From an uncultured Muribaculaceae bacterium (GTDB lineage: Bacteria; Pseudomonadota; Alphaproteobacteria; Rs-D84), in NCBI GenBank assembly GCA_965231035.1, contig OZ246409.1, positions 271,101 through 303,100 of the forward strand: a stretch of 32,000 nt of DNA, in the 5' to 3' direction. This document shows positions 2,522 through 31,330 of this stretch, piece after piece. Position 1 is the stretch's first letter, and every line of letters begins with the position of its first letter. A model generated the notes under the pieces. That model was not told where the DNA came from and made no database searches. It was given only the letters and a program-made list of their open reading frames with translations. The position numbers were made by a program, and so were the translations under genes.

Positions 2522-2689
2522 TTTATTTCCTTTGGTTTAGTCAGCCGATGTTAATATAACACCAGCAGGAACACCCTTATTCTAGACAAATATTTGATAA
2601 AATCAAGCAAATAATCCCTATTGACTTATCGATTGTATTTTTACTATCATTTACAAAAGGCAGAGAGACTTAAAAAACGAGAGATTTTA

Positions 2690-3481
2690 ATGAGTAACCA
2701 GTTTCACAGATATCTTAACCGTATGGCATTGTTTGCAGCCTTGGTCACAGTTGGTGCTATTTTGTTTTATGATCAATTTTTGAAAATAGCCGTCACAAAC
2801 GTTTGGCTGAACGGTATAATTATTGGTACAACTATTTTTGGAATTGGGCTTTGTTTTACTGATATTTTCAAATTGTTGCCAGAATACAGATGGATGAAAA
2901 AATACTTTGGTGAAAACAAAAATGCGGATTTACCACCAAGATTGCTACGCCCGGTTGCCATGATTTTGCAACGCAGCGAACAGACCAAGGGTCCAATTTC
3001 TACCAATACCATCAGCAGCTTTTTGGATATAATTATCGGCCGTTTCGAAGATCAACGTGAATCCGTCAGATATATAACCAATACTTTGATATTTTTGGGA
3101 TTGTTGGGAACATTCTGGGGATTAATTCATACAGTTGGCGGGTTTGCAGCATTGGTTGGGAATTTGAATTTTGGTGATGAAAATATTATGAATACTTTGC
3201 AATCTGGAATTGCCAAACCGCTTGCTGGAATGGGAACAGCATTTACATGTTCTTTGTTCGGATTGGCAGGCAGCTTGGTTGTTGGATTTTTGGGATTACA
3301 AGTACAATTGGCCCAAAATTCAATATTTCGTGATTTGGAAGAAAACTTGTCTTCGCGTGCCAGAATGTTTGAATTGGATGAGGTAAAGGCTTTTGATGCT
3401 CTTCCCCAGATTAACTTGGCAACACGCGAATTATCACTAGCAGTTCAAAAACTGGAAAAATCAGTTTCAAAACTGACATAA
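2690..3481 (+). CDS. MotA/TolQ/ExbB-family proton-channel protein (non-flagellar context)
   Basis: I prefer the ATG at 2690 (MSNQFHRY, preceded by CGAGAGA) over the track TTG at 2621. There are multiple TM segments. The C-terminal motifs LGLLGTFWGLIHT and AKPLAGMGTAFTCSLFGLAGSLVVGF resemble the MotA/ExbB channel core. Confidence 0.7.
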   Translation: MSNQFHRYLNRMALFAALVTVGAILFYDQFLKIAVTNVWLNGIIIGTTIFGIGLCFTDIFKLLPEYRWMKKYFGENKNADLPPRLLRPVAMILQRSEQTKGPISTNTISSFLDIIIGRFEDQRESVRYITNTLIFLGLLGTFWGLIHTVGGFAALVGNLNFGDENIMNTLQSGIAKPLAGMGTAFTCSLFGLAGSLVVGFLGLQVQLAQNSIFRDLEENLSSRARMFELDEVKAFDALPQINLATRELSLAVQKLEKSVSKLT

Positions 3482-3507: not shown

Positions 3508-4725
3508 ATGCTGCATTTTCGTTTTCGTGAAAAAACTAATACTTGGCCCGGGTTCGTGGATTTATTTTCCAACCTGGTTATTATTCTTATTTTCTTGCTG
3601 ATTGTTTTTGTATTCTTGTGGACAACCACCAGTGTTTTTAACAAAAGTAGTGGATTGAAAACTGTTTCTGAATTAAGAAAAACAAACGAAGAACAAAGTC
3701 AGTCTTTGGCACAAATGTCAGCCGATGAACAAGAAGCCAAACGTCTGTTGGTTATGGCACGCAGTGAACTGGAAACTTTACAACAAAGCAAAACTGAATT
3801 AGAAGATAAGACAAACGATCTTCAGTCCAAGGCTTCTGATTTGCAAGAAAAAGCTGCTGACCTTGAAAGTGAAAAAGCAGATTTGCAGGATAAAATTAAT
3901 CAACTGAACTCTGAAATACAAAAAAGAGATACCGGCACACAAGAACTGGTTACGGCTTATGAAAGCAAGGTTTCAGATATGCAAGATTCTGAAAACAAAT
4001 TGCAAGATATGATTAATCAATTAAATACTCAACTGAACCAGGCAACTGTGGATAAACAAAAAACAGCCGAGCTGGAACAGCAACGTCGTGCACTGCAATC
4101 CGATTTAGAAGCTCAACGTATGGCATTATCTGATCAATTGTCAAAACTGCAGGCATCGTTGGACGCAGCCGAAGCAAAGTCACAAACCCAAGAAGTTCAA
4201 TATACTGAATTGTCGAATCGTTTAAACAAAGCATTGGCTGACAAGGTTGCAGAACTAAGCAAGGTTGGACAATACCAATCAGATTTTTATAAGGCTATCA
4301 AGTTGGCACTGGGCGACAGAACAACAATTAAACAAGAAGGTGACCGCTTTATAATTTCCAGTGATATTTTATTTTCCAGCGGCGAATATAATCTGTCACC
4401 AGAAGGTAAAAATCAATTGCGTCTGATTGCAAACGTAATCAAAGATATGGAAAATAAAATTCCAACAGATGTAAATTGGATTGTTCGTGTTGATGGTCAC
4501 ACAGATAAAACACCTGTAAATCCTGGAAATCATGCCTTTAAGAATAACACCCAACTTTCATTATTACGCGCAATTGCAGTTTCTGGTGAATTGGAAAAAG
4601 CAGGCGTTTCAAAACGCAGATTGGTTCCCAGTGGATTTGGCGAAATGTATCCAGTTGAATTGGGCACAGATGCAACCAGCCTGCAAAAGAATCGCAGAAT
4701 CGAACTGCGTTTAACCAACAGATAA
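3508..4725 (+). CDS. MotB/OmpA-family peptidoglycan-binding protein with ~200-aa central coiled coil
   Basis: The N-terminus WPGFVDLFSNLVIILIFLL is a MotB-like TM segment with a conserved Asp. The C-terminus RVDGHTDKTP...NTQLSLLRAIAVSGELEKAGV...NRRIELRL is OmpA-like. A strong RBS GAGAGAGAGGA lies upstream, 26 nt after the upstream gene. Confidence 0.8.
   Translation: MLHFRFREKTNTWPGFVDLFSNLVIILIFLLIVFVFLWTTTSVFNKSSGLKTVSELRKTNEEQSQSLAQMSADEQEAKRLLVMARSELETLQQSKTELEDKTNDLQSKASDLQEKAADLESEKADLQDKINQLNSEIQKRDTGTQELVTAYESKVSDMQDSENKLQDMINQLNTQLNQATVDKQKTAELEQQRRALQSDLEAQRMALSDQLSKLQASLDAAEAKSQTQEVQYTELSNRLNKALADKVAELSKVGQYQSDFYKAIKLALGDRTTIKQEGDRFIISSDILFSSGEYNLSPEGKNQLRLIANVIKDMENKIPTDVNWIVRVDGHTDKTPVNPGNHAFKNNTQLSLLRAIAVSGELEKAGVSKRRLVPSGFGEMYPVELGTDATSLQKNRRIELRLTNR
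3817..3921 (+). repeat. five tandem 21-nt (7-aa) repeats inside the MotB-like gene
   Basis: The peptide reads DLQSKAS DLQEKAA DLESEKA DLQDKIN QLNSEIQ. I verified that the GAT at 3817 encodes the first Asp. Confidence 0.75.
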
Positions 4726-7083: not shown

Positions 7084-9585
7084 TTACATAACGATATCTT
7101 CACATTTTGCTTCGGATGTTTCAGTCTTACAGCTGGTGTTTCTATTGTTATGGAACCAGCTTTTGCTGCCTGTTGTTTTGCAACTTTCTGTGATTGTTGT
7201 TGTGCAAATATGACAATTTCTGGTTTCACGACTGAATATTGCACTGACCTGTTTTGTCATTCCACCGCCACTTAATTTTGCACCACCCAAATATCCACCA
7301 TTGCTGAATGTCACACCACCAGCATGCATTACACCAGCCCCGCCTTTCATCAAATCTTCGGTTGTTAAACCAGATCCGACTTCGTAACTGATTGCATATG
7401 GTGGAGTCAAAGGAGTGCTGGCATTAACATCACCCAAACCACCTGCCCCACCGTTTTCTGCAATCTTTTGACACATGTATTGTGCCAAATCTGCAGAAGC
7501 ATTTTTGGTTGCAGATGATATTTCTTTATTCAATTTTGTATTATAATTATCTTGAGCTTTACGCAATGCAGCAACAGCAATTTGCATTTTAACCTGGTTC
7601 AGCAATTTTGGAAAACGTGCTGTGGTGACAGAACCGTCCTTACCATTTATCTGTGACAAATCACGTCCACTGACACAATATTGAATCTTAGGATCTTGTT
7701 CTATCATTTCAATCGTGCGATTAATAGTGCCAGAAATATTATTCAGTTCTTCTTCAACAGAAGACATTATTCCAGCAGCGTTTGGAATACTTGTATTATT
7801 TGATTTAACTTTTACCAAATAATCTTGGATACCAATTTGTCCAGGTTCTAACTTTGTTCCATCATCCAAAGTTTTACCACTGGAATCACCCATTTGTATA
7901 CTGCCAAATGAAATCATTCCTGTTACACGATATACATCACCATCTTTTTGAGAACGAATTGAACCCGTTCCAATTGTGTCATCGGCTGCGAATTTATTAC
8001 AATCTGTGGTGCTGCCACAAACCTCGGTCATTTTTTCATCAACCAGATTCTCGCAATTTTCCAATTCAGCATTATCAATATTCAAATACAATCCCATCAA
8101 CATTGAATCCAAATCATCCATTGAAAATGCTGGATTATTTGCTTTGCAAACAACCAATTTATCCAATGGGCAAATATCTTTTATGTAATTGTAATCCATA
8201 CCGATACAATTGCTGAAATCTTTGCCGCATCTTTCATCGGATGTAAAGCAATCTTTGACTTCTTGGGTACAAGCATCTACACGCATAGCAGCCAACTTGT
8301 CAGTTACATATCCCCATATCATTGGTTCCATTCTTTCACAAGTATCAATTTGAACCTTGCAGAAACTGCGTGCCATATCTGGTCTGGACAAGCAAGAATC
8401 CATTGTTGCTGTCCCTTTACCAACTATATCGTCTTTACATGCTTTTTGAATACAGCTGGAAATATCAGTTAAACAAGATTGACGCATTTTTGATTCTGCA
8501 TTTTGCTCGGCAAGTTTTATTGTTGGTGCGGCTTCACGTAAAAAATCGGGCCAAACATTGTCACGCACAACAACACATTGATCCAAAACTTTTTCACAAA
8601 TATTGCGTTTTGCTTCCAAAATTTCCATCGTAGAATCAGTTATGTCAAATTTAGATATAACATCTACTTTGGTACCAGCAGTACTGACGGCCTTGTTATT
8701 CTGCATATTTTCCGAAGCAATCGTAGAAACGCAATTTGCCCAATCTTTGCCACATGCGTCATCAGATTGCATACATTTTTTAAATTCAACCATACATGTT
8801 CCACGATCATACTTGTTTGCGGAATCAAAACTGCTTTTTAACGCCGCACGAACATCAGATTGTGCACTGGTCAAAATTTTGTCTGCATCAGCCTTTTTTG
8901 ATGCAACATCATTTGCAAATGCATTACAGTCAGAAACAATTTGTCTTGAATACATTTGTTGCAAGAACACAACATCTTTTGTACAAGAATCCGGCATCTT
9001 GGAAAGACAAAGATCATTCGCACCGGTATAAAGAGAGTTTCCAGTTTTATTGGCCAAATTATCAACTTCTTCTTCGAAAACATCTTGATCATCAGTTGAA
9101 GAATTAGATTCAAAAATAGCCATCAAATCTTTTTTCTTCTTTTCCTTGGTCTGTTCTGTTGATAATTCATCTACTGATATAACATTACCTTTTTCATCAT
9201 ATTCACGGGCACCATTAAAGATAATATCAGCCTGTGCCCCAGCCTTGATTTTTTCAACTTGAACTGTTTTCAAATTATCTGCATTTTCCAATTGCTTTTT
9301 TATATCAGCCAATTGTTTTTCATATTTTGCATTTTCATCACTGCACGAACAAGTTCCACCATTAGTATTATCAACATTACAAAACTGATCCATACATCCG
9401 TAATAAGTATCGTAACATTCTTGTGAATATAAACCAGTCGCCGCAACCTTAGCACGAACACTTGTTCCGCTTTGTATGACAGATTGCCCTTTGCTGGAAC
9501 GTGTTGCCACAGCAGATTCAGCTGTAAAATGCACCAAGCAAAACACAGATGTCAACAATCCAAAGCTTATAATTTTACGCATCAT
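7084..9585 (-). CDS. large secreted cysteine-rich protein, family member A (833 aa)
   Basis: Signal peptide MMRKIISFGLLTSVFCLVHFTA. Head motif ECYDTYYGCMDQFCNVDNTNGGTCSCS at 9340..9417. There are ~36 Cys in the mature part. RBS GGAGAGAG lies upstream, 23 bp after member B. It is clearly alignable to member B. Confidence 0.85.
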   Translation of the reverse strand: MMRKIISFGLLTSVFCLVHFTAESAVATRSSKGQSVIQSGTSVRAKVAATGLYSQECYDTYYGCMDQFCNVDNTNGGTCSCSDENAKYEKQLADIKKQLENADNLKTVQVEKIKAGAQADIIFNGAREYDEKGNVISVDELSTEQTKEKKKKDLMAIFESNSSTDDQDVFEEEVDNLANKTGNSLYTGANDLCLSKMPDSCTKDVVFLQQMYSRQIVSDCNAFANDVASKKADADKILTSAQSDVRAALKSSFDSANKYDRGTCMVEFKKCMQSDDACGKDWANCVSTIASENMQNNKAVSTAGTKVDVISKFDITDSTMEILEAKRNICEKVLDQCVVVRDNVWPDFLREAAPTIKLAEQNAESKMRQSCLTDISSCIQKACKDDIVGKGTATMDSCLSRPDMARSFCKVQIDTCERMEPMIWGYVTDKLAAMRVDACTQEVKDCFTSDERCGKDFSNCIGMDYNYIKDICPLDKLVVCKANNPAFSMDDLDSMLMGLYLNIDNAELENCENLVDEKMTEVCGSTTDCNKFAADDTIGTGSIRSQKDGDVYRVTGMISFGSIQMGDSSGKTLDDGTKLEPGQIGIQDYLVKVKSNNTSIPNAAGIMSSVEEELNNISGTINRTIEMIEQDPKIQYCVSGRDLSQINGKDGSVTTARFPKLLNQVKMQIAVAALRKAQDNYNTKLNKEISSATKNASADLAQYMCQKIAENGGAGGLGDVNASTPLTPPYAISYEVGSGLTTEDLMKGGAGVMHAGGVTFSNGGYLGGAKLSGGGMTKQVSAIFSRETRNCHICTTTITESCKTTGSKSWFHNNRNTSCKTETSEAKCEDIVM

Positions 9586-9608
9586 AATCTCTCTCCACCA
9601 AAGTGTTA

Positions 9609-11750
9609 TTACATATTAACGTCTTCACAAGAATCAACTTCTTGGCAAAATTCTTGAGTACCGCCAGATGCACGACCGCCAAAGAATCCACCAATCGCAC
9701 CGACTGCACCACCAATTGCTGTTCCCCACCCAGGCATAACCATTGTACCAGCCGCAGCACCAGCTGCCAATCCACCCCCAGCAGCCTTTAATCCAGATGT
9801 ATTTTTACTTTCGCCACCTTTTTCACAAACTTGTTGTGTGCGACATACATGACAATTTCTTAAAGACGGTTCAAAAGATACACTTTTTATATAACTGTAA
9901 TTTTTCTTTTTTTCGTCTGGCGTTTCTACCTTATAAGTCGAGGTACAATTTTTTTCTGCTTCTTCTAGGCTTTGAGCACGAGATAATTCTGCAATTTTTG
10001 ATTCCAATTGTTTCACAGCTCTGTTTTCTGCACCAATTTCAGCAATTAACTTTGCGGTACTGAACACAGTATCACCCATTGATTTACGACCAGTTGGCTT
10101 TTTACCGTCTTTGCAAGCAGTAACATTTTTATCATTTTCAAAATCAGTAAAGAAATTTTTAACTGCTGCATCCGCATTATCTATAACTTGCTGACGCAAG
10201 GCAACCATACCTTCTTCGGTATCTGGAACAGCATTCAATGCTGTTATTCTTGCATCATTTGGCAAACAGGACATATCTGTTCCACAAACCTTACCAAGTT
10301 TTTCTGCAAAATAATTTGTACAACTTTGCAACATTTGATAATCCATCTGCAACATAGCCGCCTGGAGAATTATATTAAATTGTGTTTCTTTCTTACATGA
10401 TGGGAACATAGACTGTGGACACAGCGCAGAAATTTCCGAAGATTTTTTACCTAAACATTCAGGAGCATCATAATTTTTACCACATCTATCCTGTAAACAT
10501 TTATCTATATCGTTTTCACAAAATTGAGTTTGTAAAAATCCAAGCTTATCACTGACAGAATTTTTTATACCCGGAATTATATCATTACATTCATCAATTA
10601 TTGGACATACGCCCGCAGCAACATTAATATCTGTCAAACAGGCAGAATCAGTGCCTGTTGAACAACCATCTTCCAGACAAGCCTGAATTTTTGCAAAACA
10701 AGTTGCACGGCGATTTTTATCCGCATATTTTGCAGCATCCTCTAAAACAGTCTTTGATTCAGCAGTCCAGTCTTGTATAACATAATCTTTGACCGCTGTG
10801 CATTGGTCCAAAACATTTTCACAAGCATTAGCACGACGAGCCAATAATTCTTCGTCCAGACAATTTTCAAAATCAGACCCGCATCCGCCCTTGTCTGATA
10901 TACAAGATTTATAAGCCAGCAAACATTCGCCACGATTATATTTGTTTGTTGTATCCAACATTTCCAATCTTGCCTTGCGGACAGCAGCCTCGGCAGTTGT
11001 TTTATTCGCACTGGCATCACGTTTTTGATCTGTCAGATAATTATTAAAATTTTTACAATCTTGAACAATTACACGCGAATAAAGCGTTTCTTCCATCCCA
11101 GCAGAATCACCGCAAGCCGCTAATTTTGAAGCACAATTATCAGTTGCAATTGCATATAAATTGTTACCAATATCATAATCTGAATTCAAAGCATCAGTGT
11201 CATCACTTGTTGTGCCAGAACTAATCCAATCCGCAAGACTTAAACCAGAAGCACGTGATGAACTTTTAGCCTTGTCACTTTCACCAAATACTAATTTTGC
11301 CTTGGCACCAAGTTTTTCGCGTTCAACACCTTCGGTATACATTTTTTCCGCGTCATTTTGTATTTTTTGAATTTCTTGTATTATCGGTTTTGCCTGATTT
11401 ATATTGTCAGAACAAGCACAACGGCTGCCTTCGGATTCATCTAATAAACAAAATTCATCCATACATTGACGATAATTATCTCGACAACTGTTTGCAGAAG
11501 AAGATGTTGTTGTCACACTTGTTTTTGTGTCTGATGATTTGCTGACAGTTGTTGTTACAGGTTCTGTAACAGTCGTTTGTGTATCTGAATCTGTAGTATT
11601 TTCAACAGATGTCGAAGCCCTGGTCATAACCTGAGATCGGGCCGCCGCCTGGGAAATACGATTAACCCCAACCCTTGCATCACTTCTATCTGCAGCAAAA
11701 ACAACACTTGGCAGAAAACAAACTGCGGTTAAAAATATTTTTAATTTCAT
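9609..11750 (-). CDS. large secreted cysteine-rich protein, family member B (713 aa from ATG 11750)
   Basis: I prefer ATG 11750 (MKLKIFLTAVCFLPSVVFA signal peptide) over the track TTG at 11810, which falls inside a predicted -35 box. An S/T-rich linker precedes the head motif SCRDNYRQCMDEFCLLDESEGSRCACS (11409..11486). A C-terminal glycine-zipper segment is present. Confidence 0.85.
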   Translation of the reverse strand: MKLKIFLTAVCFLPSVVFAADRSDARVGVNRISQAAARSQVMTRASTSVENTTDSDTQTTVTEPVTTTVSKSSDTKTSVTTTSSSANSCRDNYRQCMDEFCLLDESEGSRCACSDNINQAKPIIQEIQKIQNDAEKMYTEGVEREKLGAKAKLVFGESDKAKSSSRASGLSLADWISSGTTSDDTDALNSDYDIGNNLYAIATDNCASKLAACGDSAGMEETLYSRVIVQDCKNFNNYLTDQKRDASANKTTAEAAVRKARLEMLDTTNKYNRGECLLAYKSCISDKGGCGSDFENCLDEELLARRANACENVLDQCTAVKDYVIQDWTAESKTVLEDAAKYADKNRRATCFAKIQACLEDGCSTGTDSACLTDINVAAGVCPIIDECNDIIPGIKNSVSDKLGFLQTQFCENDIDKCLQDRCGKNYDAPECLGKKSSEISALCPQSMFPSCKKETQFNIILQAAMLQMDYQMLQSCTNYFAEKLGKVCGTDMSCLPNDARITALNAVPDTEEGMVALRQQVIDNADAAVKNFFTDFENDKNVTACKDGKKPTGRKSMGDTVFSTAKLIAEIGAENRAVKQLESKIAELSRAQSLEEAEKNCTSTYKVETPDEKKKNYSYIKSVSFEPSLRNCHVCRTQQVCEKGGESKNTSGLKAAGGGLAAGAAAGTMVMPGWGTAIGGAVGAIGGFFGGRASGGTQEFCQEVDSCEDVNM

Positions 11751-11781
11751 CAGACACCACCCTACATAGTCGTTGTATGTA

Positions 11782-11810
11782 ATTTTATCAAATGCTGGCT
11801 TCCCACGCAA
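11782..11810 (-). promoter_or_regulatory. candidate sigma70-type promoter for the B-A cysteine-rich operon
   Basis: The minus strand reads TTGCGT, a 17-nt spacer ending in TGA, then TAAAAT (extended -10 like). It lies ~30 nt upstream of ATG 11750. Confidence 0.45.
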
Positions 11811-11895
11811 GCAGATAAACGTATAAAAATACCTTGCTTTTTCAATTCATAGCTAATATCATCAAACTAGTATTTTGTTTACAAAAAGGTTATTT

Positions 11896-12144
11896 ATGGC
11901 AAAAGATGATGTAATTGTATTAAATGGTACAGTTGAAGATAAATTGCCGAACACGATGTTCCGCATAAAATTAGAAAATGGACACGATGTTCTGGCAACT
12001 GTTTGTGGAAAAATGCGTAAAGCACGCATTTGGGTTAACGTTGGTGAAAAGGTCCGTGTTGAAATGACCCCTTATGACTTAGACAAGGGTCGTATTACAT
12101 TTGTAGAAAGAACTGCAAAACCTGCCCCAACTGCACAACAATAA
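11896..12144 (+). CDS. infA: translation initiation factor IF-1
   Basis: [42 protein letters not shown]...[11 protein letters not shown] is canonical IF-1. I prefer ATG 11896 over the track TTG at 11875. Confidence 0.95.
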
Positions 12145-12148
12145 ATTT

Positions 12149-12173
12149 ATCCCGCGAACCGCGGGATTTTTTT
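12149..12173 (+). terminator. rho-independent terminator after infA
   Basis: 8-bp stem ATCCCGCG / CGCGGGAT with loop AAC, followed by TTTTTT. Confidence 0.85.
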
Positions 12174-12233
12174 GAAATTACAAATTATTTTCCTTGCCCT
12201 GATTTTCATATTTTTGCTAATATTTTACAGAGA

Positions 12234-14972
12234 ATGAAAAAGATTTGGTCTTTTGCTTTATGTTGCATTATCAGCATCAGTTTTGCTGACGCTTCGCAAC
12301 GCACAGAAACTTCTATAAATCGTGAACCAGTTTCAACTTCACAACGTACCGCAACTGTTCAAAAAGAATCTGCAAAAGTTAATTCCAGAACTGGTTCTGT
12401 ACGTGAGGTTTCGGTCAGAAACAGTTCTAATACATTGTCACGATCAGCTGTTACAACCCCCAGAAAAAACACTACAATTTCTGCAAGGTCGGCAACAACC
12501 ACAACAAAAGCAAGAACAACTGTTACCAGAAACGTCCCGGTTACAAAAAACAATCTGATATCCCGAACAACCACAACAACATCAGATTCAAAAACCTTTG
12601 GCAGTGGATATAACGCTTGCAGGGACTCTTATTTCACCTGTATGGATCAATTTTGTGCAAAACAAGATGAAACATATCAACGCTGTGCTTGTTCATCCAG
12701 ATTGGAAGAAATAAAAAGCAAAGAACGCGCACTTTCACAAACCAAGCAGCAATTACAAGATTTCAAGGATTTAAATATTGATTCAATATCCAAGACCAGG
12801 AACGAGGTCAAGGCTATGGTGAATGCCAGTGCTGGTGAATCCGCAACTGATAAATCAACTGATACTTCCAGCAGTTCGGAAAAATTATCAGGTATCAGTT
12901 CTGTATTAAGCAAGACAAAATCCGAATCTTTATCCACCCAAGGTAAATTAGATATTGCCGGTAATATAAATGCTATTTGGTCAACCACAGATTTGACTGC
13001 TGGTGCAGATATAATGAATTTAACCGGGGAAAAACTTTACAATGCTGTTCACGCCCAATGCGTTTCTTTTGCATCTGATTCTTGTGATTCTAAATCAACA
13101 TTAAATATGGTTGTTACTGCCTATGGAATGTATATTGAAAATGATTGCACAACACTTTCTAATTCTTTGGCAAAACAAACTACTAACGCATCCGGAAGTA
13201 TACGTGAAACAGAACAAGCAATGAACCAAGCCAGATTAGAAAATTATGATTCACATAATTCTACATCTATTAATGACTGTATATCAAACGTTCGCAAAGA
13301 TATAACTGCTGACTCTGCTTGTGGTAAAGATTATATTCACTGTTTGGACATAACTGGAAAATATCTTAACAGCGATACAGGAGAGCCTATATACAGCTCG
13401 GACTTTTATCAGTTAGAATTACAAACATCTTTATCAGGGGATATTTTAACAAACCAGACAAATAGGTTGCTTGTAAATGAGTTAAATAAAAAGAAAGAGT
13501 TCGTAACAAACGATTTATCCAAGTGTAGCGATTTGTCATCTGATGTGTGGGATGAATTTATGCGTCAAGCAATTACCGAAATATATCAAGGCCAGCAAGA
13601 AAGAATCCGAGAAGTTAAAAACGAATGTATTGATGTTGTTAACGATTGCTATGACACACAAAGCAAATCTTTGAAAGATTTTAGTAATGTAAAAGAACAG
13701 CTTTTGTTGGGATCAAGATTAGAATTATCTGAAGAAATGTGCAAAGAAAAACTTAATGCATGCAGCAATCTTTACGGTGGTGGTGAACCAGGACTAGAAG
13801 AACTTGTTACAACCATGCATAATATTACAGATCAGAAAATTGCTAAAGATTGCAAAACAACACTGGAAGATTATGCAAAAAGTATTTGTGCTGTACCATC
13901 CAGCGACATTGTCCATGGATACCCTTTTGCATGTCGCACATACGCACCAGGCGAACAAAAGTATGCCTCTATTTCGTCGTGTAATCTTGTATTTTCGACC
14001 GGAACTTTGAATGTTATTGATACCGGGTATACTGCTGGTGTTGATAATGGAACTGGAACTGTTAATTTCATTTGCAGAGATAACACAATTTATACAAATT
14101 GCAGTTATGGATATTACATGGCTTATTTAACCAATGGTTTTTACATTTATGACGGAACTCCAAAACCTGGTAATAAATGTCTAAAATGTCCTACACTTGC
14201 ATCTAATGGAACATCAGCGGTTAGTTACAATTGTAATGGTGGAACAGAAGCTCCTGCACAGATAACAAATGAAAATACAAGTAATGTTACATGTGGTGAT
14301 GATTATGTAGGAAGTTTGTATCAAAAAATTGTTAGATATGCATTACAGACCTGCACCAGACCTTCGGATTCTACAGAAGTTTTACCTTATGCAATTTTAG
14401 CCGATGTGAATGTTGTTATGGATTCAATAAAATCAGCAATGGGCACGCAGTTGTCCGATGAATGTGAACGTCTTGGTGGTATTTGGGTTAATACTCCAGG
14501 AAATAATGTATCTTCTGATAAAATATTAACATCATTTTATACCGAGACCAGTTCTAATAAAAAATGGGGGTATTGTTCTGTTACACCAGCCATAGTATGC
14601 CCAAAATTTTCCACTTCGGATTCCAGTTGTGTATCTACTGATTCATCGGGTGTATCTGGTGGTTGTGCAATAGCAAAATGCAGATGTGTTTCCGGAACAT
14701 ATTCAAATGGGTCTGGAGGATGTACGCCGGGTACATACAGTTGCCAAGGAGCCTGTGGTACCCAAAGAACGACATTTACTGCAAGTTCACAAACACCTGT
14801 TACAACAGCATGGACGGGCGGTGATAATTATAAGATACGTAGAAAATATAGTGTATTATGTTCCAATTGGATAACTGTAAGTGGGGGTACTTGCACTTCT
14901 GCTAATTTCACAGCTTATTACACTTCGTGTTTAAACGATAATAATTTCACTACGCTAGTAACTTGCGATTAG
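12234..14972 (+). CDS. large secreted cysteine-rich protein, family member C (912 aa)
   Basis: Signal peptide MKKIWSFALCCIISISFADA. A ~105-aa S/T/R-rich linker precedes the head motif ACRDSYFTCMDQFCAKQDETYQRCACS (12618..12698). About 40 Cys in total. The C-terminal third differs from members A and B. Confidence 0.85.
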   Translation: MKKIWSFALCCIISISFADASQRTETSINREPVSTSQRTATVQKESAKVNSRTGSVREVSVRNSSNTLSRSAVTTPRKNTTISARSATTTTKARTTVTRNVPVTKNNLISRTTTTTSDSKTFGSGYNACRDSYFTCMDQFCAKQDETYQRCACSSRLEEIKSKERALSQTKQQLQDFKDLNIDSISKTRNEVKAMVNASAGESATDKSTDTSSSSEKLSGISSVLSKTKSESLSTQGKLDIAGNINAIWSTTDLTAGADIMNLTGEKLYNAVHAQCVSFASDSCDSKSTLNMVVTAYGMYIENDCTTLSNSLAKQTTNASGSIRETEQAMNQARLENYDSHNSTSINDCISNVRKDITADSACGKDYIHCLDITGKYLNSDTGEPIYSSDFYQLELQTSLSGDILTNQTNRLLVNELNKKKEFVTNDLSKCSDLSSDVWDEFMRQAITEIYQGQQERIREVKNECIDVVNDCYDTQSKSLKDFSNVKEQLLLGSRLELSEEMCKEKLNACSNLYGGGEPGLEELVTTMHNITDQKIAKDCKTTLEDYAKSICAVPSSDIVHGYPFACRTYAPGEQKYASISSCNLVFSTGTLNVIDTGYTAGVDNGTGTVNFICRDNTIYTNCSYGYYMAYLTNGFYIYDGTPKPGNKCLKCPTLASNGTSAVSYNCNGGTEAPAQITNENTSNVTCGDDYVGSLYQKIVRYALQTCTRPSDSTEVLPYAILADVNVVMDSIKSAMGTQLSDECERLGGIWVNTPGNNVSSDKILTSFYTETSSNKKWGYCSVTPAIVCPKFSTSDSSCVSTDSSGVSGGCAIAKCRCVSGTYSNGSGGCTPGTYSCQGACGTQRTTFTASSQTPVTTAWTGGDNYKIRRKYSVLCSNWITVSGGTCTSANFTAYYTSCLNDNNFTTLVTCD

Positions 14973-15011: not shown

Positions 15012-15743
15012 ATGAAAAAATTATTTTATGCACCTTTATTTTCGCTAATTTTTTCTGCACACGCGGGTGCTTTATCTGCCCCAAGTGCAACCCCTTGGTG
15101 GCTGCAACCAACTATTTGTAAACCTAATACTACAAATTGTTATTCAAATATGGGCGCCGGGTATGATTCTGGTATGTGGGATGCAACAAGCAATTGCTGG
15201 GGATTGAAAAAAATTTGTGCCGAAGCTACAACTTCTACATCAGATGAAGATTATGTCGAAATGGGACGTGTTACAATTGCAAATGGTACAGGTATAAATT
15301 CTGACTTTGATACTACTGTTTTAAATGGTGATTGTTTTGGTGCAAGAAAAACAACTGCCAGCGGAACACTTGCTTCGGTTAGTGGAAGTTATGTTAATGT
15401 TTGGTGTAATGGGATTTTGGACAACCCAGGGGATACCGTTTCAAATGGTGAAATTCAAATTGGAACCCAACCAACATGCAAAGATTTGGCGGCAAATGGT
15501 TGGGTTGCTGTTTTGAATCAACGCTGTTATGGGAAATATTATGATCCTGAAAAATACTATATTGAGTGTGAAGGAACAAATCTGTTACCAAAAAGGATTA
15601 TTGTTCTGAATGGATCACAAAAGTTTACTGGAACTGGTTCTGCACCAAGTGCAAATTATCCTGTTGATGCAAATGCGGCGGATACTTTATTTGATAAAAT
15701 GTTTAATGTTTCAAATAATAAAAAATCAGACCATTTTAAGTAA
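15012..15743 (+). CDS. secreted cysteine-containing protein (243 aa), partner of member C
   Basis: Signal peptide MKKLFYAPLFSLIFSAHA and 9 Cys. It starts 39 bp after member C and is followed by a strong terminator. Confidence 0.7.
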   Translation: MKKLFYAPLFSLIFSAHAGALSAPSATPWWLQPTICKPNTTNCYSNMGAGYDSGMWDATSNCWGLKKICAEATTSTSDEDYVEMGRVTIANGTGINSDFDTTVLNGDCFGARKTTASGTLASVSGSYVNVWCNGILDNPGDTVSNGEIQIGTQPTCKDLAANGWVAVLNQRCYGKYYDPEKYYIECEGTNLLPKRIIVLNGSQKFTGTGSAPSANYPVDANAADTLFDKMFNVSNNKKSDHFK

Positions 15744-15750
15744 TACAAAT

Positions 15751-15781
15751 AAAAAACCGGAATTCTGATTCCGGTTTTTTT
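15751..15781. terminator. bidirectional terminator between the 15012..15743 ORF and clpX
   Basis: 9-bp stem AACCGGAAT / ATTCCGGTT with loop TCTG. It is flanked by an A-run and a T-run. Confidence 0.85.
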
Positions 15782-20114: not shown

Positions 20115-20450
20115 ATGCCAGATAAAAGAAACTGCATTACAAAAATTTTGCTGACAAAAAAAGATAATAAACCTATTAAAGGTACTGGTGGTATAACCAT
20201 TTCTAAAAACGAACATTATTGCTTTAAATCTAAAGAATTAGATTCTTGCCCCGTTTTGACTGGTGCTAAAAATATAAAAGTATGCAGTTGCGAAGAAGAA
20301 TTTTGTATTGCTGTTCCAGAAGGCTGTGATATTAATAAAACACTCGCTGGCTTATATTCAGAAAAATTAATTAATCCCGAAGTTTTTTTTGCAAAATCAA
20401 TGATTGAAAGAATGATACGTTTAGGCAGAAAAAGAAATAAACATAAATAA
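20115..20450 (+). CDS. hypothetical small cysteine-rich basic protein (111 aa, no signal peptide)
   Basis: ATG start with a good RBS and promoter. It has 7 Cys, including CSCEEEFC, and a basic tail RLGRKRNKHK. Confidence 0.55.
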   Translation: MPDKRNCITKILLTKKDNKPIKGTGGITISKNEHYCFKSKELDSCPVLTGAKNIKVCSCEEEFCIAVPEGCDINKTLAGLYSEKLINPEVFFAKSMIERMIRLGRKRNKHK

Positions 20451-22875: not shown

Positions 22876-23976
22876 ATGAAAAAATATCTGAACAAGATTT
22901 TTGTTGGCGACTGTATTGAACAAATGCGCGGACTGCCTGACAGCAGCGTAGATGCCGTTTTTGCCGACTCTCCTTATAACTTACAACTGGGCGAAAAAAC
23001 ACTTTACAGACCCGAAGATCAAACCGCCGCACGTGCAGTTCGTGATTCTTGGGATTATTTTGAGTCAAATGCTGAATATGATAAATTTACACGTGAATGG
23101 ATGACCGAGTGTAAACGCGTATTAAAGCCAGATGGTGCAATGTGGGTTATTGGCAGTTATCATAATATTTTCAGGGTTGGCAGCATTTTGCAAGATTTGG
23201 GATTCTGGATTTTGAACGATATTGTTTGGGTTAAAAATAATCCTATGCCCAACTTTCGCGGGACTCGTTTCACAAACGCCCATGAAACTTTGATTTGGGC
23301 AACCCCGCACAAGACTGGAAAATATACTTTTAATTATGAAACCATGAAAAAACTGAATGGTGGTAAACAGATGCGTTCTGATTGGGATATAAATATTTGC
23401 TTGGGCGAAGAACGTGTCAAAGATGAAACCGGTAAAAGCCTGCACAACACCCAAAAACCCGAAGATTTATTAAAACGCGTAATTTTGTCTTCCACAAAAC
23501 CTGGGGATATTATTTTGGATCCATTTATGGGCAGTGGAACAACCGCAGCAGTTGCCAAAGAATTGGGTAGAAACTTTATTGGATTTGAACGCGAAGAATC
23601 TTATGTCACAGCTGCGCGTGAACGCGTTGATGCAGTTAAACCAATTGATTTGTCTGAAATAGAAGTATCCGCCCCAAAGCGTGATGAAATCCGTGTAGCC
23701 TTTAATGAATTAATTGAAGGTGGATTGCTGTATGTCGGTCAAACACTGGTCAGTCCACGTGGTGAACGTGTAATGATAACACGTGACGGACAATTGACAC
23801 ACAGTCTGTATGGCAAAGCATCAATTCACGTTATGGCAGCCAAAATACAGCGCAGTGCCAGCTTTAACGGATGGGATTATTGGAGTGCGATTAAAAAAGA
23901 CGGAACACTTGTCGCGATTGACGAACTTCGTAAATATATCCGCAACATAAAACGCGACATCAAAAAAGTTGCATAA
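22876..23976 (+). CDS. ccrM: CcrM-type N6-adenine DNA methyltransferase (GANTC family)
   Basis: FADSPYNLQL, WVIGSYHNIFRVGSILQDLGFWILNDIVWVKNNPMPNFRGTRFTNAHETLIWA and DPFMGSGTT. It also has the CcrM-specific C-terminal ~80-aa domain. Confidence 0.9.
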   Translation: MKKYLNKIFVGDCIEQMRGLPDSSVDAVFADSPYNLQLGEKTLYRPEDQTAARAVRDSWDYFESNAEYDKFTREWMTECKRVLKPDGAMWVIGSYHNIFRVGSILQDLGFWILNDIVWVKNNPMPNFRGTRFTNAHETLIWATPHKTGKYTFNYETMKKLNGGKQMRSDWDINICLGEERVKDETGKSLHNTQKPEDLLKRVILSSTKPGDIILDPFMGSGTTAAVAKELGRNFIGFEREESYVTAARERVDAVKPIDLSEIEVSAPKRDEIRVAFNELIEGGLLYVGQTLVSPRGERVMITRDGQLTHSLYGKASIHVMAAKIQRSASFNGWDYWSAIKKDGTLVAIDELRKYIRNIKRDIKKVA

Positions 23977-27527: not shown

Positions 27528-30500
27528 TTATATTCCCAACTTATGTGTCAGTTTTAACATAAATATGGATTCATTTCCAAATTCACTGATATTGTTTGGA
27601 TTGATGCGATAAATCATCCCCAGCGCACCATCTGTAAATGCCCCCAGCTTTACACGATAGCTTCCTGTGAATCTTAATTCTCGCTTTTCTGGTGACAGAC
27701 CCAAATCAGAAATATGGGTATCCCTTACAACCAGATCATATGTTCCATCTGAATTTTCAACAACATCATAATCTGCATAAGCATATTTCATATCACCCGA
27801 AGTAATTGCCAAAGGCATTGCGGCCGAGAATGAAAAATTATTTACATCTGCCCCAACTGAGAATGAATTTGATTTAATATCCGACAATCCCAATATGAAA
27901 TCACCATTTGGATTTGCACGTGTTTGTGCAAAAGTCGAACGAACTGAAAAATCAATATCCTTGGTCGGGCTGTATCTTGCAACAGTATCAACATATGTTG
28001 TATCACCCTGACCCAGTCCTAACAATCCGCCCGTTTGTGCACCCAATACTGTATTTGTTTCATGTGCAGTTCCGATTGCTGATGTAATTGCAAACTTTCC
28101 ATTACCCCATGTAACGTTTGTTTCACCACCCTGGATTAATCCCAGGTTTGCTGGCTGGTACTGACTGGTAACAGTTGGGTCATTTTGCAAAATAGATTCA
28201 TCTGTAATATTTCCCGAAAACGTACGTGCACCAAAAGACCAATTTCCTGATTTGTACTCGGCACCAGTTGAAACTATATTCGAAGCCAAAGATAAAACAG
28301 GATTCGCAGTACCGTCAAATCTGGAAACACCATCAGTAAAGTGACGCTGATAACCGGCGCTGAAATTAAAGTTACCGACACCATATCCAAATTGTAAATT
28401 ATCCAAACCACCCATATTATCAACATAAGCTTTTTCGGATACAGCCATTTGGAATGTTACATTACCCGATTTGAATTGTTTTGGATTTTCTTTGGTTGTT
28501 TGGAAACTTCCCAATACATCACCCATATAAAGCCCACGAACATCAGATGTACCCAGCGCAAATTCATTTTCCCAAACACGTGGCAATGACAACGTTCCAT
28601 CAGAACTTGTCAGAACATCATAAAATGGTGCACTTATTGATGCGGCACGTGGATTAAACACTGCAGATGATCTGAACAAAGTATTTGTTGCCGCACGCCA
28701 ATAACCATTTCCACTTGTTGATACTATTGAATCCCCATCATAGTAATAAACATTAGCTGTTGGTTTTGTTGCACGTTCAATATTAACCAATCCGTAACCA
28801 AACACTTCTTTGAAAACTTTCAAATAGTCTTCGCCACCTGAGTCAACACGATACTGGTATTCTGTTGGCAATTGATACATAGCCTGCAAATAAGTTTTCA
28901 ATGCCGAAACTGTCATAGCAGTCCCGGTTGTAGTTGTTGCCAAATAAGGACCATCAGCAGTCAAAGCCAACAAAGCAAACAATTGTTTGTTATTCAAATA
29001 ATCAAATGCGGATTTCACAGCACCAACCGCCCCAGCCATACTGGATACAGCCAATTCGTCTGTCAATCCTGCCGCAGAAAAACACCATGGATCAATTCCA
29101 TTTGCACCACTGCCCGCAATCCCACAAGCGCGTGATTTATAGTTTTTATCATCTAATGGATCAATTGTTCCCTGGGTATCGGTCCAAGTTGATAACGCAA
29201 TCTTGCCAGAAGGAACATAACCAGAAACGCTTGTTTGACCATTTGTGCCGGTACCATTCAATCCAACTGCAACAACCGACATAAATAAATGTTCCAAATT
29301 ACTGAAAACCAATGGTGCAGAATTTTCAAATGTCGCCGTTAATGTTTGTCCTGAATATGAGCTGTCTGTTTCTGCTGCACCAGTCGAGAATATTACCAAT
29401 GGTGCCCAATCGCGAAGCCCGTAGTTGTAAAAGAAATCAAAAAAGAGGCTAGCATCTGCACTTGGTAATACTGAGGTTCCATCATTCTCATAATACAAAT
29501 CAACATAATCAAAAAACTTATCCTTATAGTTAGTCGGGGTAGGAGTAACAGATAAAATATCACCAACTGTTTTTGCATCACGATCATGCAGTGGTGAAAT
29601 CACAGAAGCATTTGCAATAATATCCACTTTTGAACGACCTGTGCTTTCTTCTGGGTCAACTAATCCCGTTAAACCAATGGCATTCAACAATGCCTTGTAA
29701 TTCTTATAATCTATATTTCCCAGTTCTTTTGTCAAAGCCAAATCATTATCAGATTCAATCGTATAGGCCTTATCAACAGTACCATCGTCATCGCTGTCAA
29801 TGTATAATAAACCATCCAGACCCTTGTATCCTTTATAAGTATGTGTTCCGTCAGTTGCAGTAAATCCCAACCCAGATGAATCTTTTGCCACTGTCAAAGT
29901 ATAAGAAAACAGTGTCAAAGTATCACTGGATGACCAGCCACTGGTGCTGTTATCAGTATACACACCAGAAACTGTGCCTGCTGCGGCTTTCATACCTTTG
30001 CCACCACCAGTTCTGAAAATTGTCATCTGGCCATTTGGCATAAATCCAATATAGTCAGCAGATGAATAACCAGAATCCTTACCACCGACAACCTTGGCTA
30101 ATAAATCGTCTATATCTCTTGAAAAAGAATTATTTATAACCGTTCCATATCCAGCCAAGTCGAACGAATTTAGTGCTGCTGAACTTGAATCTTCTTCGGT
30201 CGAATCGTCCAATATTGAATCAGACTCTGACCCACGATTTATTTTATTATTATAATATTTGCTGGACATCATATTATTACTTGCAGATATCACGGCATTA
30301 TTATTTGTTTTGCTCCATAATAATAATCTATCTTCAAGTGAAGTATCTTGTTTCGCATTTATACCATTCTTTGTTATTATCGCAACATTTGTTGGGCGAC
30401 CACCCATAACAGAACCACCAGTCAAAGAACGACCTGAAAAACTTAGCGGTGCTTTTGATTCTGTGTTTCGCAATGTTCGCATACCCATATAACCACGTGC

Positions 30501-31265
30501 CAGCGCAGAATATCCATGCATCATCAATAAATAATTTTGTTTATACACATGATTTGTCGTATCCGTACTGGTACCGGTCATCAATGCGAAATTATCTTTT
30601 AAAATACCTGCGGTTGATGGGCTGTAATAATTCAAATTGTTTGTGTAATTCGCGGTTTCCGATGTCGCATTAGGCATAGCGGGACTGTAAGGTAATTGAA
30701 AAGACGCAGTTCCACCACCAGGCGTAACATTTGTACAATCACATGTGCCATCTGCTTTACATATTCCAACACTGGTAATTGAACAACGACATTGTTCACC
30801 CGAAACACATTTTGTATTATCTGTGCTGGTGGTATTACTATTTCCAGCAGATACAACATCCGTTAACATAAACAGTCCGCCAACAACAACGGCGGCCCCT
30901 GCCGCCGCCAACGCTATGCTTTGGGCAGAAGACAGCCCGCTGAACAATCCACCAGATTCTTCTTTTGGTAATTTGTTTTTATATTTTTTAATCTGATAAT
31001 CACACTTCGAAGCGTCTGCACCGTACATTTGTAAAATCTGTGCGGCACGAATATCATTATTCATCAATGCTGTGCAAACAACCGACAAGCCAGTATTATC
31101 AACATAGTTTATATCCGCACCATTATTAACCAGTGCTTGAACCTGCTGAACATCACCATTCTTTGCTGCGGCCAGCAACTGAGCTGCAACCTTGAAATTA
31201 TCCACTGCAAAAGCGGAAAATGGAACAAAAATCAAAGAAAACAACAATAATCTTATGTACTTCAT
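27528..31265 (-). CDS. ankyrin-repeat / subtilase-like autotransporter-type outer-membrane protein (1245 aa from ATG 31265)
   Basis: Signal peptide MKYIRLLLFSLIFVPFSAFA; the track start at 31298 adds 11 aa. Ankyrin-like repeats at 31008..31187. Subtilase-like end motifs are SSMAGAVGAV and FGYGLVNIERA (verified at 28800). The C-terminal ~300 aa shows an alternating beta-strand pattern (NFNFSAGYQ..., SFSVGADVNNFSFSAA...). Confidence 0.75.
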   Translation of the reverse strand: MKYIRLLLFSLIFVPFSAFAVDNFKVAAQLLAAAKNGDVQQVQALVNNGADINYVDNTGLSVVCTALMNNDIRAAQILQMYGADASKCDYQIKKYKNKLPKEESGGLFSGLSSAQSIALAAAGAAVVVGGLFMLTDVVSAGNSNTTSTDNTKCVSGEQCRCSITSVGICKADGTCDCTNVTPGGGTASFQLPYSPAMPNATSETANYTNNLNYYSPSTAGILKDNFALMTGTSTDTTNHVYKQNYLLMMHGYSALARGYMGMRTLRNTESKAPLSFSGRSLTGGSVMGGRPTNVAIITKNGINAKQDTSLEDRLLLWSKTNNNAVISASNNMMSSKYYNNKINRGSESDSILDDSTEEDSSSAALNSFDLAGYGTVINNSFSRDIDDLLAKVVGGKDSGYSSADYIGFMPNGQMTIFRTGGGKGMKAAAGTVSGVYTDNSTSGWSSSDTLTLFSYTLTVAKDSSGLGFTATDGTHTYKGYKGLDGLLYIDSDDDGTVDKAYTIESDNDLALTKELGNIDYKNYKALLNAIGLTGLVDPEESTGRSKVDIIANASVISPLHDRDAKTVGDILSVTPTPTNYKDKFFDYVDLYYENDGTSVLPSADASLFFDFFYNYGLRDWAPLVIFSTGAAETDSSYSGQTLTATFENSAPLVFSNLEHLFMSVVAVGLNGTGTNGQTSVSGYVPSGKIALSTWTDTQGTIDPLDDKNYKSRACGIAGSGANGIDPWCFSAAGLTDELAVSSMAGAVGAVKSAFDYLNNKQLFALLALTADGPYLATTTTGTAMTVSALKTYLQAMYQLPTEYQYRVDSGGEDYLKVFKEVFGYGLVNIERATKPTANVYYYDGDSIVSTSGNGYWRAATNTLFRSSAVFNPRAASISAPFYDVLTSSDGTLSLPRVWENEFALGTSDVRGLYMGDVLGSFQTTKENPKQFKSGNVTFQMAVSEKAYVDNMGGLDNLQFGYGVGNFNFSAGYQRHFTDGVSRFDGTANPVLSLASNIVSTGAEYKSGNWSFGARTFSGNITDESILQNDPTVTSQYQPANLGLIQGGETNVTWGNGKFAITSAIGTAHETNTVLGAQTGGLLGLGQGDTTYVDTVARYSPTKDIDFSVRSTFAQTRANPNGDFILGLSDIKSNSFSVGADVNNFSFSAAMPLAITSGDMKYAYADYDVVENSDGTYDLVVRDTHISDLGLSPEKRELRFTGSYRVKLGAFTDGALGMIYRINPNNISEFGNESIFMLKLTHKLGI

Positions 31266-31330
31266 GAAAACTCTCTCTGCTAGAGAAAATTTTAACATAA
31301 AAATGTCAAATCTGTCCAGCGGAAAAAATG

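Follow-up and report, generated by a model that had tools for sequence, protein, structure and literature searches.

Background

The disulfide-stapled helical hairpin is a known structural principle. In the CHCH/twin-Cx9C and small Tim (twin-Cx3C) proteins of the mitochondrial intermembrane space, antiparallel helices carry cysteine pairs that are joined by two disulfides, outer to outer and inner to inner. Bacterial relatives in spirit are the Hcp proteins of Helicobacter, which are secreted, consist of helical Sel1-like repeats and have disulfides across helix pairs, and OmcA and OmcB of the chlamydiae, which are cysteine-rich extracytoplasmic proteins of a genome-reduced, host-dependent bacterium. 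Here we analyzed a window, that is, the whole stretch of 32,000 nucleotides at positions 271,101 to 303,100 of contig OZ246409.1, from an uncultured alphaproteobacterium of the order Rs-D84. Four genes of this window, named A-D in this work, encode secreted cysteine-containing proteins, and three of these proteins (A, B and C) share a 26-residue head motif. Our preferred reading, with a probability of roughly 0.55, is that the motif is the signature of Sec-exported, mostly helical, disulfide-stapled proteins of ~700-1100 amino acids and ~36 cysteines that form an extracytoplasmic structural or partner-contact assembly.

Candidatus (Ca.) Enterousia, a member of the order Rs-D84, comprises gut bacteria that have genomes below 1 Mb, lack a respiratory chain and probably depend on partners (PMC12306168). 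The Rs-D84/Enterousia group occurs widely in the guts of humans, livestock and termites (PMC12306168). Literature searches on Enterousia and Rs-D84 turned up no paper that discusses the A-D proteins.

Head motif of three paralogous proteins

The four genes and the three motif copies, the latter obtained by translation and a regular-expression scan, are located as follows.

7084..9585, minus strand: gene A, a secreted, mostly alpha-helical protein of 833 amino acids with 36 mature cysteines; second gene of the predicted B->A operon
9340..9417, minus strand: head motif of A, residues 57-82, CYDTYYGCMDQFCNVDNTNGGTCSCS
9609..11750, minus strand: gene B, 713 amino acids with 36 mature cysteines; first gene of the predicted B->A operon
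11409..11486, minus strand: head motif of B, CRDNYRQCMDEFCLLDESEGSRCACS
12234..14972, plus strand: gene C, a secreted protein of 912 amino acids with 41 mature cysteines (an odd number); first gene of the predicted C->D operon
12618..12695, plus strand: head motif of C, CRDSYFTCMDQFCAKQDETYQRCACS
15012..15743, plus strand: gene D, a secreted protein of 243 amino acids with nine cysteines (an odd number) and without the head motif; located 3' of C

The pattern C-x-D-x-Y-x2-C-M-D-x-F-C-x9-C-x-C-S (26 residues) was scanned in all six frames of the whole window and matched exactly three times, as did its core CMDxFC, with one copy in each of the large open reading frames (ORFs) A, B and C. These are the instances that an earlier, sequence-only reading of this DNA had described, and translation reproduced their strings identically; the end of the C motif had been set one codon too far, at 12698 instead of 12695. 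Chance alone would give 1.3e-11 matches over the six frames of the window, or 6e-12 if the composition of A, B and C themselves is used, while a calculation with generic amino-acid frequencies, made without a scan, gives ~3e-7 for a library of 2.4e11 residues. The motif is thus real and non-random, and its repetition reflects homology: there are three copies because A, B and C are paralogues. Full-length identity is 30% between A and B and 21% between A and C, and ~20 cysteines beyond the motif are aligned.

The start of B is probably the ATG at 11750, since the closest homologue (P0001, 98% identical) has 713 amino acids; the listed TTG at 11810 probably lies too far upstream. Toward its C-terminus, B contains ~40 conserved residues that form a glycine-rich, hydrophobic stretch. 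C is the most divergent paralogue and differs in its cysteine-rich C-terminal half.

Distribution of the family

An exhaustive hidden Markov model search with a motif-to-core profile retrieved at least 829 clusters at 50% identity (E <= 1e-3), 386 of them at E <= 1e-30, and B has more than 1000 homologues. A word-index protein search with a 74-residue head profile returned only 28 candidates and four short fragments and was uninformative. In addition, a back-translated pattern made from the three heads of the window was scanned against 241 million metagenome records; it matched 227 times, and 73 of the matches encode relatives, in 72 loci. We also retrieved 18 species-level genomes, three of which are named Ca. 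Enterousia species. Homologues are therefore plentiful, and the outcome in which the pattern would occur in the three proteins of the window only is excluded.

All members that carry a name are annotated as 'hypothetical protein' and derive from metagenome-assembled genomes labeled as Alphaproteobacteria, Rickettsiales, Pseudomonadota, Proteobacteria or Candidatus Enterousia. Some metagenome contig names give a human-gut or activated-sludge origin, and from other accession prefixes we infer rumen and termite-gut samples. So far, judging from these sequences, family members appear confined to genome-reduced gut Alphaproteobacteria (Rs-D84/Ca. Enterousia and relatives).

Searches of Pfam and NCBIfam with A, B, C and D gave no match above cutoff (best E 0.056-0.5), 22 diverse head regions shared no family, and sequence searches of the PDB with the family profiles, C and D returned nothing credible. 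Two local Pfam matches over the motif and the following helix are probably noise from composition or coiled coils: DUF2664 (PF10867; 12.5 bits and E 0.21 on C against a gathering threshold of 22, and E 0.24 on one of the 22 head regions) and MG280 (PF23067; 12.2 bits on A and 19.8 bits on the head of one A orthologue, again one of 22, against a gathering threshold of 27.4). Together with the structure comparison below, this defines a new protein family, without a curated family and without a sequence or fold match in the searched PDB, BFVD, Pfam and NCBIfam.

Variation of the motif

Motif statistics were calculated on the 150 best representatives. The cysteine skeleton C-x6-C-x4-C-x9-C-x-C is present, once each, in 141 of them, and the remaining nine are N-terminally truncated or variant. 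Per-position counts refer to the 141 sequences with the exact skeleton, among which Cys1, Cys8, Cys13, Cys23 and Cys25 are invariant by definition; in an alignment of 388 sequences, each head cysteine is absent from at most one full-length sequence. Conservation is also high for Asp10 (140 of 141), Met9 (137), Phe12 (135), Arg22 (134) and Ser26 (128). Position 5 is aromatic (Y 105, F 31, W 4), and position 3 is variable (D 67, E 24, N 14). Among the residues that had been called invariant, the five cysteines stand, but Asp3 does not and Tyr5 becomes Y/F/W; the near-invariant Arg22 had been overlooked because A has Thr there.

The strict pattern with C-x-D-x-Y is present in 47 of the 150 representatives and the relaxed form C-x3-[YFW]-x2-C-[ML]-D-x-[FM]-C-x8-R-C-x-C-[SND] in 129. 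Residues 57-82 of A form the most informative 26-residue window of the family alignment, with 2.91 bits per column compared to a mean of 1.53 and 2.47 for the runner-up. The proposal that the motif could serve as a family-defining search pattern is thus borne out as far as a genuine signature is concerned, found once per protein and in the best conserved window, but its strict form is too tight. Our working definition of the family comprises a signal peptide, a low-complexity linker, one relaxed motif and a helical region of at least 400 amino acids with conserved cysteines (A193, 201, 220, 264, 278, 285, 337, 378 and 409, in residue numbers of A). A, B and C all belong to the family so defined; every conserved family cysteine is present in them, and A departs from the working signature only at Arg22, which is Thr.

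Each paralogue has its own variant of the motif, namely CY.xY[YF]GCMDQFC..DN..GG.C.CS in the A lineage, CR.xYR.CMD[EQ]FCLLDE[ST]EG.RCACS in the B lineage and CR.xYFTCMDQFCA.....Y[RQ]RC.CS in the C lineage. One sub-lineage of A (P0130, P0136, L056 5731-8352 and L057 4006-6636) has a 12-residue insertion in the x9 loop, for example GDSAVLNIPGEAITLDGG. Because such insertions are tolerated, the loop is probably exposed.

Cysteine parity and pairwise loss

From the motif onward, 205 of the 221 A-like proteins contain an even number of cysteines, as do 127 of the 129 B-like ones. The mature chains of A and B each contain exactly 36 cysteines in almost all species loci; for A, this number holds in those 18 Enterousia-type loci where the copy is of full length. 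Cysteines also disappear in twos. In P0233 the head Cys1 (A57) and A201 are both gone, and 32 cysteines, again an even number, are left. A371 and A416 are missing together from five or six representatives, which keep A378 and A409, and the C lineage jointly lacks A271 and A330 as well as A383 and A398. Most cysteines are spaced i, i+7 on predicted helices, the gaps being mostly 6 and in some cases 4, 7, 9 or 11. At the N-terminus of each of the four proteins is a hydrophobic, signal-like segment that lacks a twin-arginine motif; a low-complexity linker of ~30-110 residues rich in Ser, Thr and Arg comes next, and in A, B and C the motif follows the linker.

Even parity, pairwise loss, spacing and Sec-like N-termini, taken together, favor disulfides over metal sites for the head cysteines. 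Since the head has an odd number of cysteines, five, and the count per chain is even, one or more of the head cysteines must bond outside the 26 residues. The sequence-only reading had left the choice between a small disulfide-locked and a metal-binding module: the disulfides are favored by parity and pairwise co-loss, but the small self-contained module is at odds with the co-loss in P0233. Parity is different in C and D. Among Enterousia-type loci, 19 of 20 have an odd count in C and 18 of 19 an odd count, of nine cysteines, in D, and as both are odd we tentatively suggest one intermolecular disulfide between C and D.

A candidate for the enzyme involved is encoded in the window, where a membrane-anchored thioredoxin of the DsbA family is present with its N-terminal part (1 to ~310, minus strand) and runs off the left edge; its full orthologue in locus L001 (19920-20747) has a CPYC active-site motif. 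This DsbA-like protein is a plausible oxidase for the ~120 cysteines of A-D, although a puzzling one, because the lineage is reported to lack a respiratory chain that would reoxidize it.

The only CxxC-type element of A and B, R-N-C-H-[IV]-C, lies in a predicted C-terminal beta-sheet (residues 791-794 of A and 653-656 of B in the 733-residue numbering). It contains a histidine and could be a redox-active or metal site.

Predicted structure

AlphaFold2 was run on A with 83 diverse family members (mean predicted local distance difference test score, pLDDT, 75; predicted template modeling score 0.51; 221 residues at 90 or above) and on B with 44 mostly orthologous sequences, which gave a weak model (pLDDT 60). 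In the model of A, a short helix (42-49) precedes the head helix (55-69), which carries Cys57, Cys64 and Cys69 with pLDDT 80-85; a less confident loop (70-78) leads to a long helix (79-115) that begins at Cys79/Cys81. A disordered acidic stretch (127-171) follows, and the chain is largely helical from there to ~711, ending in a disordered Gly-rich segment and a small three-stranded sheet. The long post-motif helix of B is predicted at 113-153, and the Ser/Thr/Arg-rich linker has low confidence in both models. The motif had been placed as the first ordered element past the signal peptide and linker, and the AlphaFold model shows it there. The coiled coil said to follow it corresponds to a long amphipathic, heptad-patterned predicted helix, in which conserved hydrophobic residues (A 88, 91/92, 95, 98 and 105) have 3-4 spacing; we use the term without its oligomeric sense.

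With the model of A, the best Foldseek E value was 0.4 against the PDB and 0.085 against BFVD, no template modeling (TM) score exceeding 0.2, and the weak model of B gave no match. Elongated helical proteins Exo70 and Sec6 appeared among the very weak Foldseek matches (TM score <= 0.2) and were rejected as analogues. An ending of the form ...C-E-D-[IV]-x-M/F was considered as an outer-membrane beta-signal; it is not always C-terminal in the representatives, and only three strands are predicted. An internal duplication is weakly detectable in A between the A264 and A439 units (hhalign probability 56%). The idea that the head motif derives from the internal C-x6-C-x6-C-G-x-D-x3-C unit was rejected at an hhalign probability of at most 5%.

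Proposed architecture and rival explanations

In the architecture that we propose, residues 1-13 of the motif (C-x3-[YFW]-x2-C-M-D-x-F-C) would be an amphipathic helix with Cys1, Tyr5, Cys8 and Phe12 on one face, where Tyr5, Met9 and Phe12, on or next to the face of Cys1 and Cys8, probably form a small hydrophobic core. The variable nine-residue loop, tolerant of insertions and ending in Arg, would connect it to C-x-C-S, which would cap the start of the long heptad-patterned helix. Cys1 is predicted to pair with A201, because P0233 has lost both, and Cys8 with A193, as expected from antiparallel geometry, so that this pairing scheme rests on one variant and on geometry. The head helix would thereby be stapled to a helix ~130-140 residues downstream, closing a long helical hairpin made up of the long post-motif helix and the variable, disordered acidic insert. 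A69, A79 and A81 may form two more bonds with the participation of A220, which would make the motif one half of an eight-cysteine, four-disulfide N-terminal hairpin domain. Stapling of this kind may recur along the chain between antiparallel helices that carry Cx6C pairs in heptad spacing, as in A371-A416 and A378-A409. In the last and weakest step, A, B and C-D, with C and D perhaps joined by one intermolecular disulfide, would together build, outside the cytoplasm, a cell-envelope assembly that is made rigid by disulfide staples and has a structural or partner-contact role. What we propose for the function of A-D we infer in its entirety.

Several observations count against this architecture. 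Broader C-like representatives include 21 even and seven odd proteins, although some of these representatives may be fragments. The A57-A201 pairing comes from a single natural variant, and the sequences that have lost both A371 and A416 may form one clade, so that their co-loss may reflect one evolutionary event. Furthermore, the oxidant for so many disulfides in the anaerobic gut is unexplained, as the lineage is reported to lack respiratory chains.

On the picture suggested by the sequence-only reading, the 26 residues would be a self-contained disulfide knot that serves as an oligomerization head, with the next helix forming an intermolecular coiled coil. Indeed, no segment of the family is better conserved than the motif, the long helix that begins right at C-x-C-S has hydrophobic residues in 3-4 spacing, and an unpaired fifth cysteine could bond between chains. 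However, mature chains are nearly always even, which speaks for pairing of the fifth cysteine within the chain, and the partner lost together with Cys1 in P0233 lies outside the motif; moreover, the heptad stretch is short (~2.5 heptads), and the monomer model packs the region in a helical bundle (pLDDT ~80). We therefore regard such a head as unlikely. Binding of zinc or an Fe-S cluster by the five cysteines with Asp, and possibly Met, would account for the invariance of these residues and for the C-x-C element, and a C-H-x-C element that is conserved toward the C-terminal end of A and B could be cited in its favor. Folded cofactor proteins are usually exported by the twin-arginine translocation (Tat) pathway, but the N-termini here are Sec-like and lack the twin-arginine motif. 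The traits looked for in zinc-ribbon and Fe-S proteins, namely loss of cysteines by sets, CxxC knuckles and cofactor-compatible export, did not fit: the count is even in 93-98% of A-/B-like proteins, losses are in twos and not in sets of four, most cysteines are heptad-spaced on helices, and no metal-binding family was matched in Pfam or NCBIfam. A metal site in the head is accordingly very improbable.

A different function would follow if A, B and C were components of a secreted helical toxin or pore acting on a host or partner cell, with the logic of tripartite alpha-pore-forming toxins. Three long helical paralogues are encoded together, B has its conserved ~40-residue glycine-rich hydrophobic segment, the lineage probably depends on a partner for metabolites, and the window encodes an ankyrin-repeat protein. 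A weak Bacillus_HBL match (E 0.035) points in the same direction but is below threshold and restricted to one of the 22 head regions, and no fold match to the ClyA, Hbl or Nhe types or to other PDB entries was obtained (Foldseek against the PDB gave none with E < 0.4). To our knowledge, 36 disulfide-forming cysteines are unlike the known alpha-pore-forming toxins; conservation resembles that of housekeeping enzymes instead of fast-evolving effectors, and no secretion system adjoins the cluster. We consider this function unlikely, although it is a live rival. That the three genes are simply a recent lineage-specific expansion and no conserved system would fit the restriction of named members to one uncultured group of Alphaproteobacteria, yet it is barely credible with paralogues only 21-30% identical, with at least 829 clusters at 50% identity, and with separate orthologues and a separate motif variant for each paralogue, found in each of the 18 species-level genomes and on many contigs from metagenomes.

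The disulfide-stapled envelope assembly remains our preferred reading. A bolder version of it, which we regard as doubtful, is that A, B and C-D form an unseen kind of extracytoplasmic machine or exoskeleton, whose helical rods are stapled by disulfides and have a fold that the PDB lacks, and which is essential to gut Alphaproteobacteria that depend obligately on a partner and have sub-megabase genomes. If true, this machine could, for example, attach to or tap a partner cell, and its production in an anaerobe without a respiratory chain would imply unconventional oxidative protein folding.

Genomic context

In the orientation of the window, the cluster has the order A<-B | infA->C->D, with intergenic gaps of 23 nucleotides for B->A and 39 nucleotides for C->D. 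The features between and after the two divergent operons are as follows, the hairpins being predicted by a consensus scan only.

11875..12144, plus strand: infA (translation initiation factor IF-1; Pfam eIF-1a, E 5e-22), between the divergent operons
12149..12167, plus strand: terminator-like hairpin after infA
15751..15780, plus strand: terminator-like hairpin after D

The first hairpin points to a separate promoter for C, and the one after D is the probable end of the C-D operon. Each of the 18 GTDB species loci has the motif genes A, B and C arranged in this way, with D and infA matched in nearly all of them, and the A-D arrangement is kept even where the flanking genes differ. infA gave a match in all Enterousia-type loci, is found at the equivalent position in L001-L003 and is a conserved landmark that lies outside the A-D system. 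Of the 72 metagenome loci, 33 contain all three motif genes. In distant lineages, B->A occurs alone in L025, L033, L056 and L074 and C->D alone in L022 and L081. By this gene-order comparison, B->A and C->D, which recur in many of the 72 metagenome loci, are conserved operons.

A and B show cross-species identities of 53-76%, compared to 56-73% for PGK, 56-71% for RecO and 81-87% for ClpX in the same loci. Judged by these values, A and B are under housekeeping-level constraint, unlike typical fast-evolving antigens or effectors.

Variations on the locus were observed in some lineages. Two or three tandem A-like paralogues replace the A/B/C set in L058 (1320-7861) and L062 (187-5297), and one subgroup of such lineages has Gly for Phe12 (CMD[AN]GC). 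In the distant loci L022 and L023, an A-like gene lies downstream of rpoA-rplQ, so that family genes adjoin highly expressed translation genes in both settings (infA and rpoA-rplQ). Two genes downstream of this A-like gene, past an oppositely oriented ORF of 339-351 amino acids, the same two loci encode a different secreted cysteine-rich protein of 684-687 amino acids with 22-29 cysteines (L022 14047-16101 and L023 14111-16174, both on the plus strand). It lacks the head motif, contains two hydrophobic segments of glycine-zipper-like character and is similar to B in its N-terminal tail (…GRVG…ARMPTMP…); as a motif-less homologue of B it was rejected at an hhalign probability of 1.5%.

Several other genes of the window were annotated. 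A multi-transmembrane protein with weak MotA/ExbB/ZorA similarity (2621-3481, plus strand; Pfam MotA_ExbB E 0.0025 and NCBIfam ZorA E 1e-6, far below cutoff) is followed by a 405-residue MotB-like protein with an N-terminal transmembrane segment, a long coiled coil and an OmpA peptidoglycan-binding domain of the PRK09039 type (3508-4725, plus strand). This pair occurs in a lineage reported to lack flagella, and homologues of both its members are found within ~8 kb of A/B in 12 of the 18 species loci. The ankyrin-repeat protein (27528-31298, minus strand) has 1256 amino acids, with the repeats at its N-terminus (Ank_4, E 3e-6) and no other recognizable domain. Bacterial ankyrin repeats often signal interaction with a eukaryotic host. 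An ORF of 111 amino acids with seven cysteines (20115-20450, plus strand) has no family match and may be real, since a gene of 121 amino acids, without a Pfam match, is present at the equivalent place in L001 (1989-2354). A CcrM-like N6/N4 DNA methyltransferase with a C-terminal RAMA domain (22876-23976, plus strand) fits the placement in Alphaproteobacteria, because enzymes of this type are typical of that class.

Significance

Lineage-specific cysteine-rich 'hypothetical' secreted families are common in uncultured bacteria. In this case ~8 kb, close to 1% of a genome below 1 Mb, are spent on four conserved secreted proteins without detectable relatives, of which A, B and C are ancient paralogues that evolve about as slowly as glycolytic enzymes. 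This genome share and slow evolution suggest something central to the cell surface or the lifestyle. The proteins also pose a biochemical question, namely how ~18 disulfides per chain would be made in a non-respiring gut anaerobe, and the refined motif provides a specific marker for these organisms and proteins in metagenomes.

Comparison with known systems

Glycine-zipper proteins (Gly-zipper/Rick_17kDa_Anti) resemble the hydrophobic segment of B by eye, and the only profile match, Bacteriocin_IIc (E 0.42, residues 665-708 of B), covers a region of low model confidence. The likeness to the mitochondrial hairpin proteins is an analogy of geometry and not homology. As in the twin-CxnC proteins, A371-x6-A378 would face A409-x6-A416, and the joint loss of A371 and A416 fits such a geometry. 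However, the spacing here is x6 (i, i+7) and not x9 or x3, two Cx9C motifs were not found, no CHCH family was matched in Pfam, and the proteins are bacterial, secreted, multi-hairpin chains of 700-1100 amino acids instead of small single hairpins.

With Helicobacter Hcp the family shares secretion and, in our proposal, disulfides across helix pairs. In contrast to the Sel1-like repeats of Hcp, A has one internal duplication only, which is weak, and no internal unit is similar to the head motif; neither Sel1 (E <= 1) nor another repeat family was matched in Pfam or NCBIfam. The chlamydial OmcA and OmcB differ in that there is no sequence match, the A-C type proteins are predicted to be helical, and the parity of A and B suggests intramolecular disulfides instead of a cross-linked network. 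Nevertheless, they are likewise cysteine-rich and extracytoplasmic and likewise belong to a genome-reduced, host-dependent bacterium, and a disulfide-cross-linked role in the envelope is conceivable for both.

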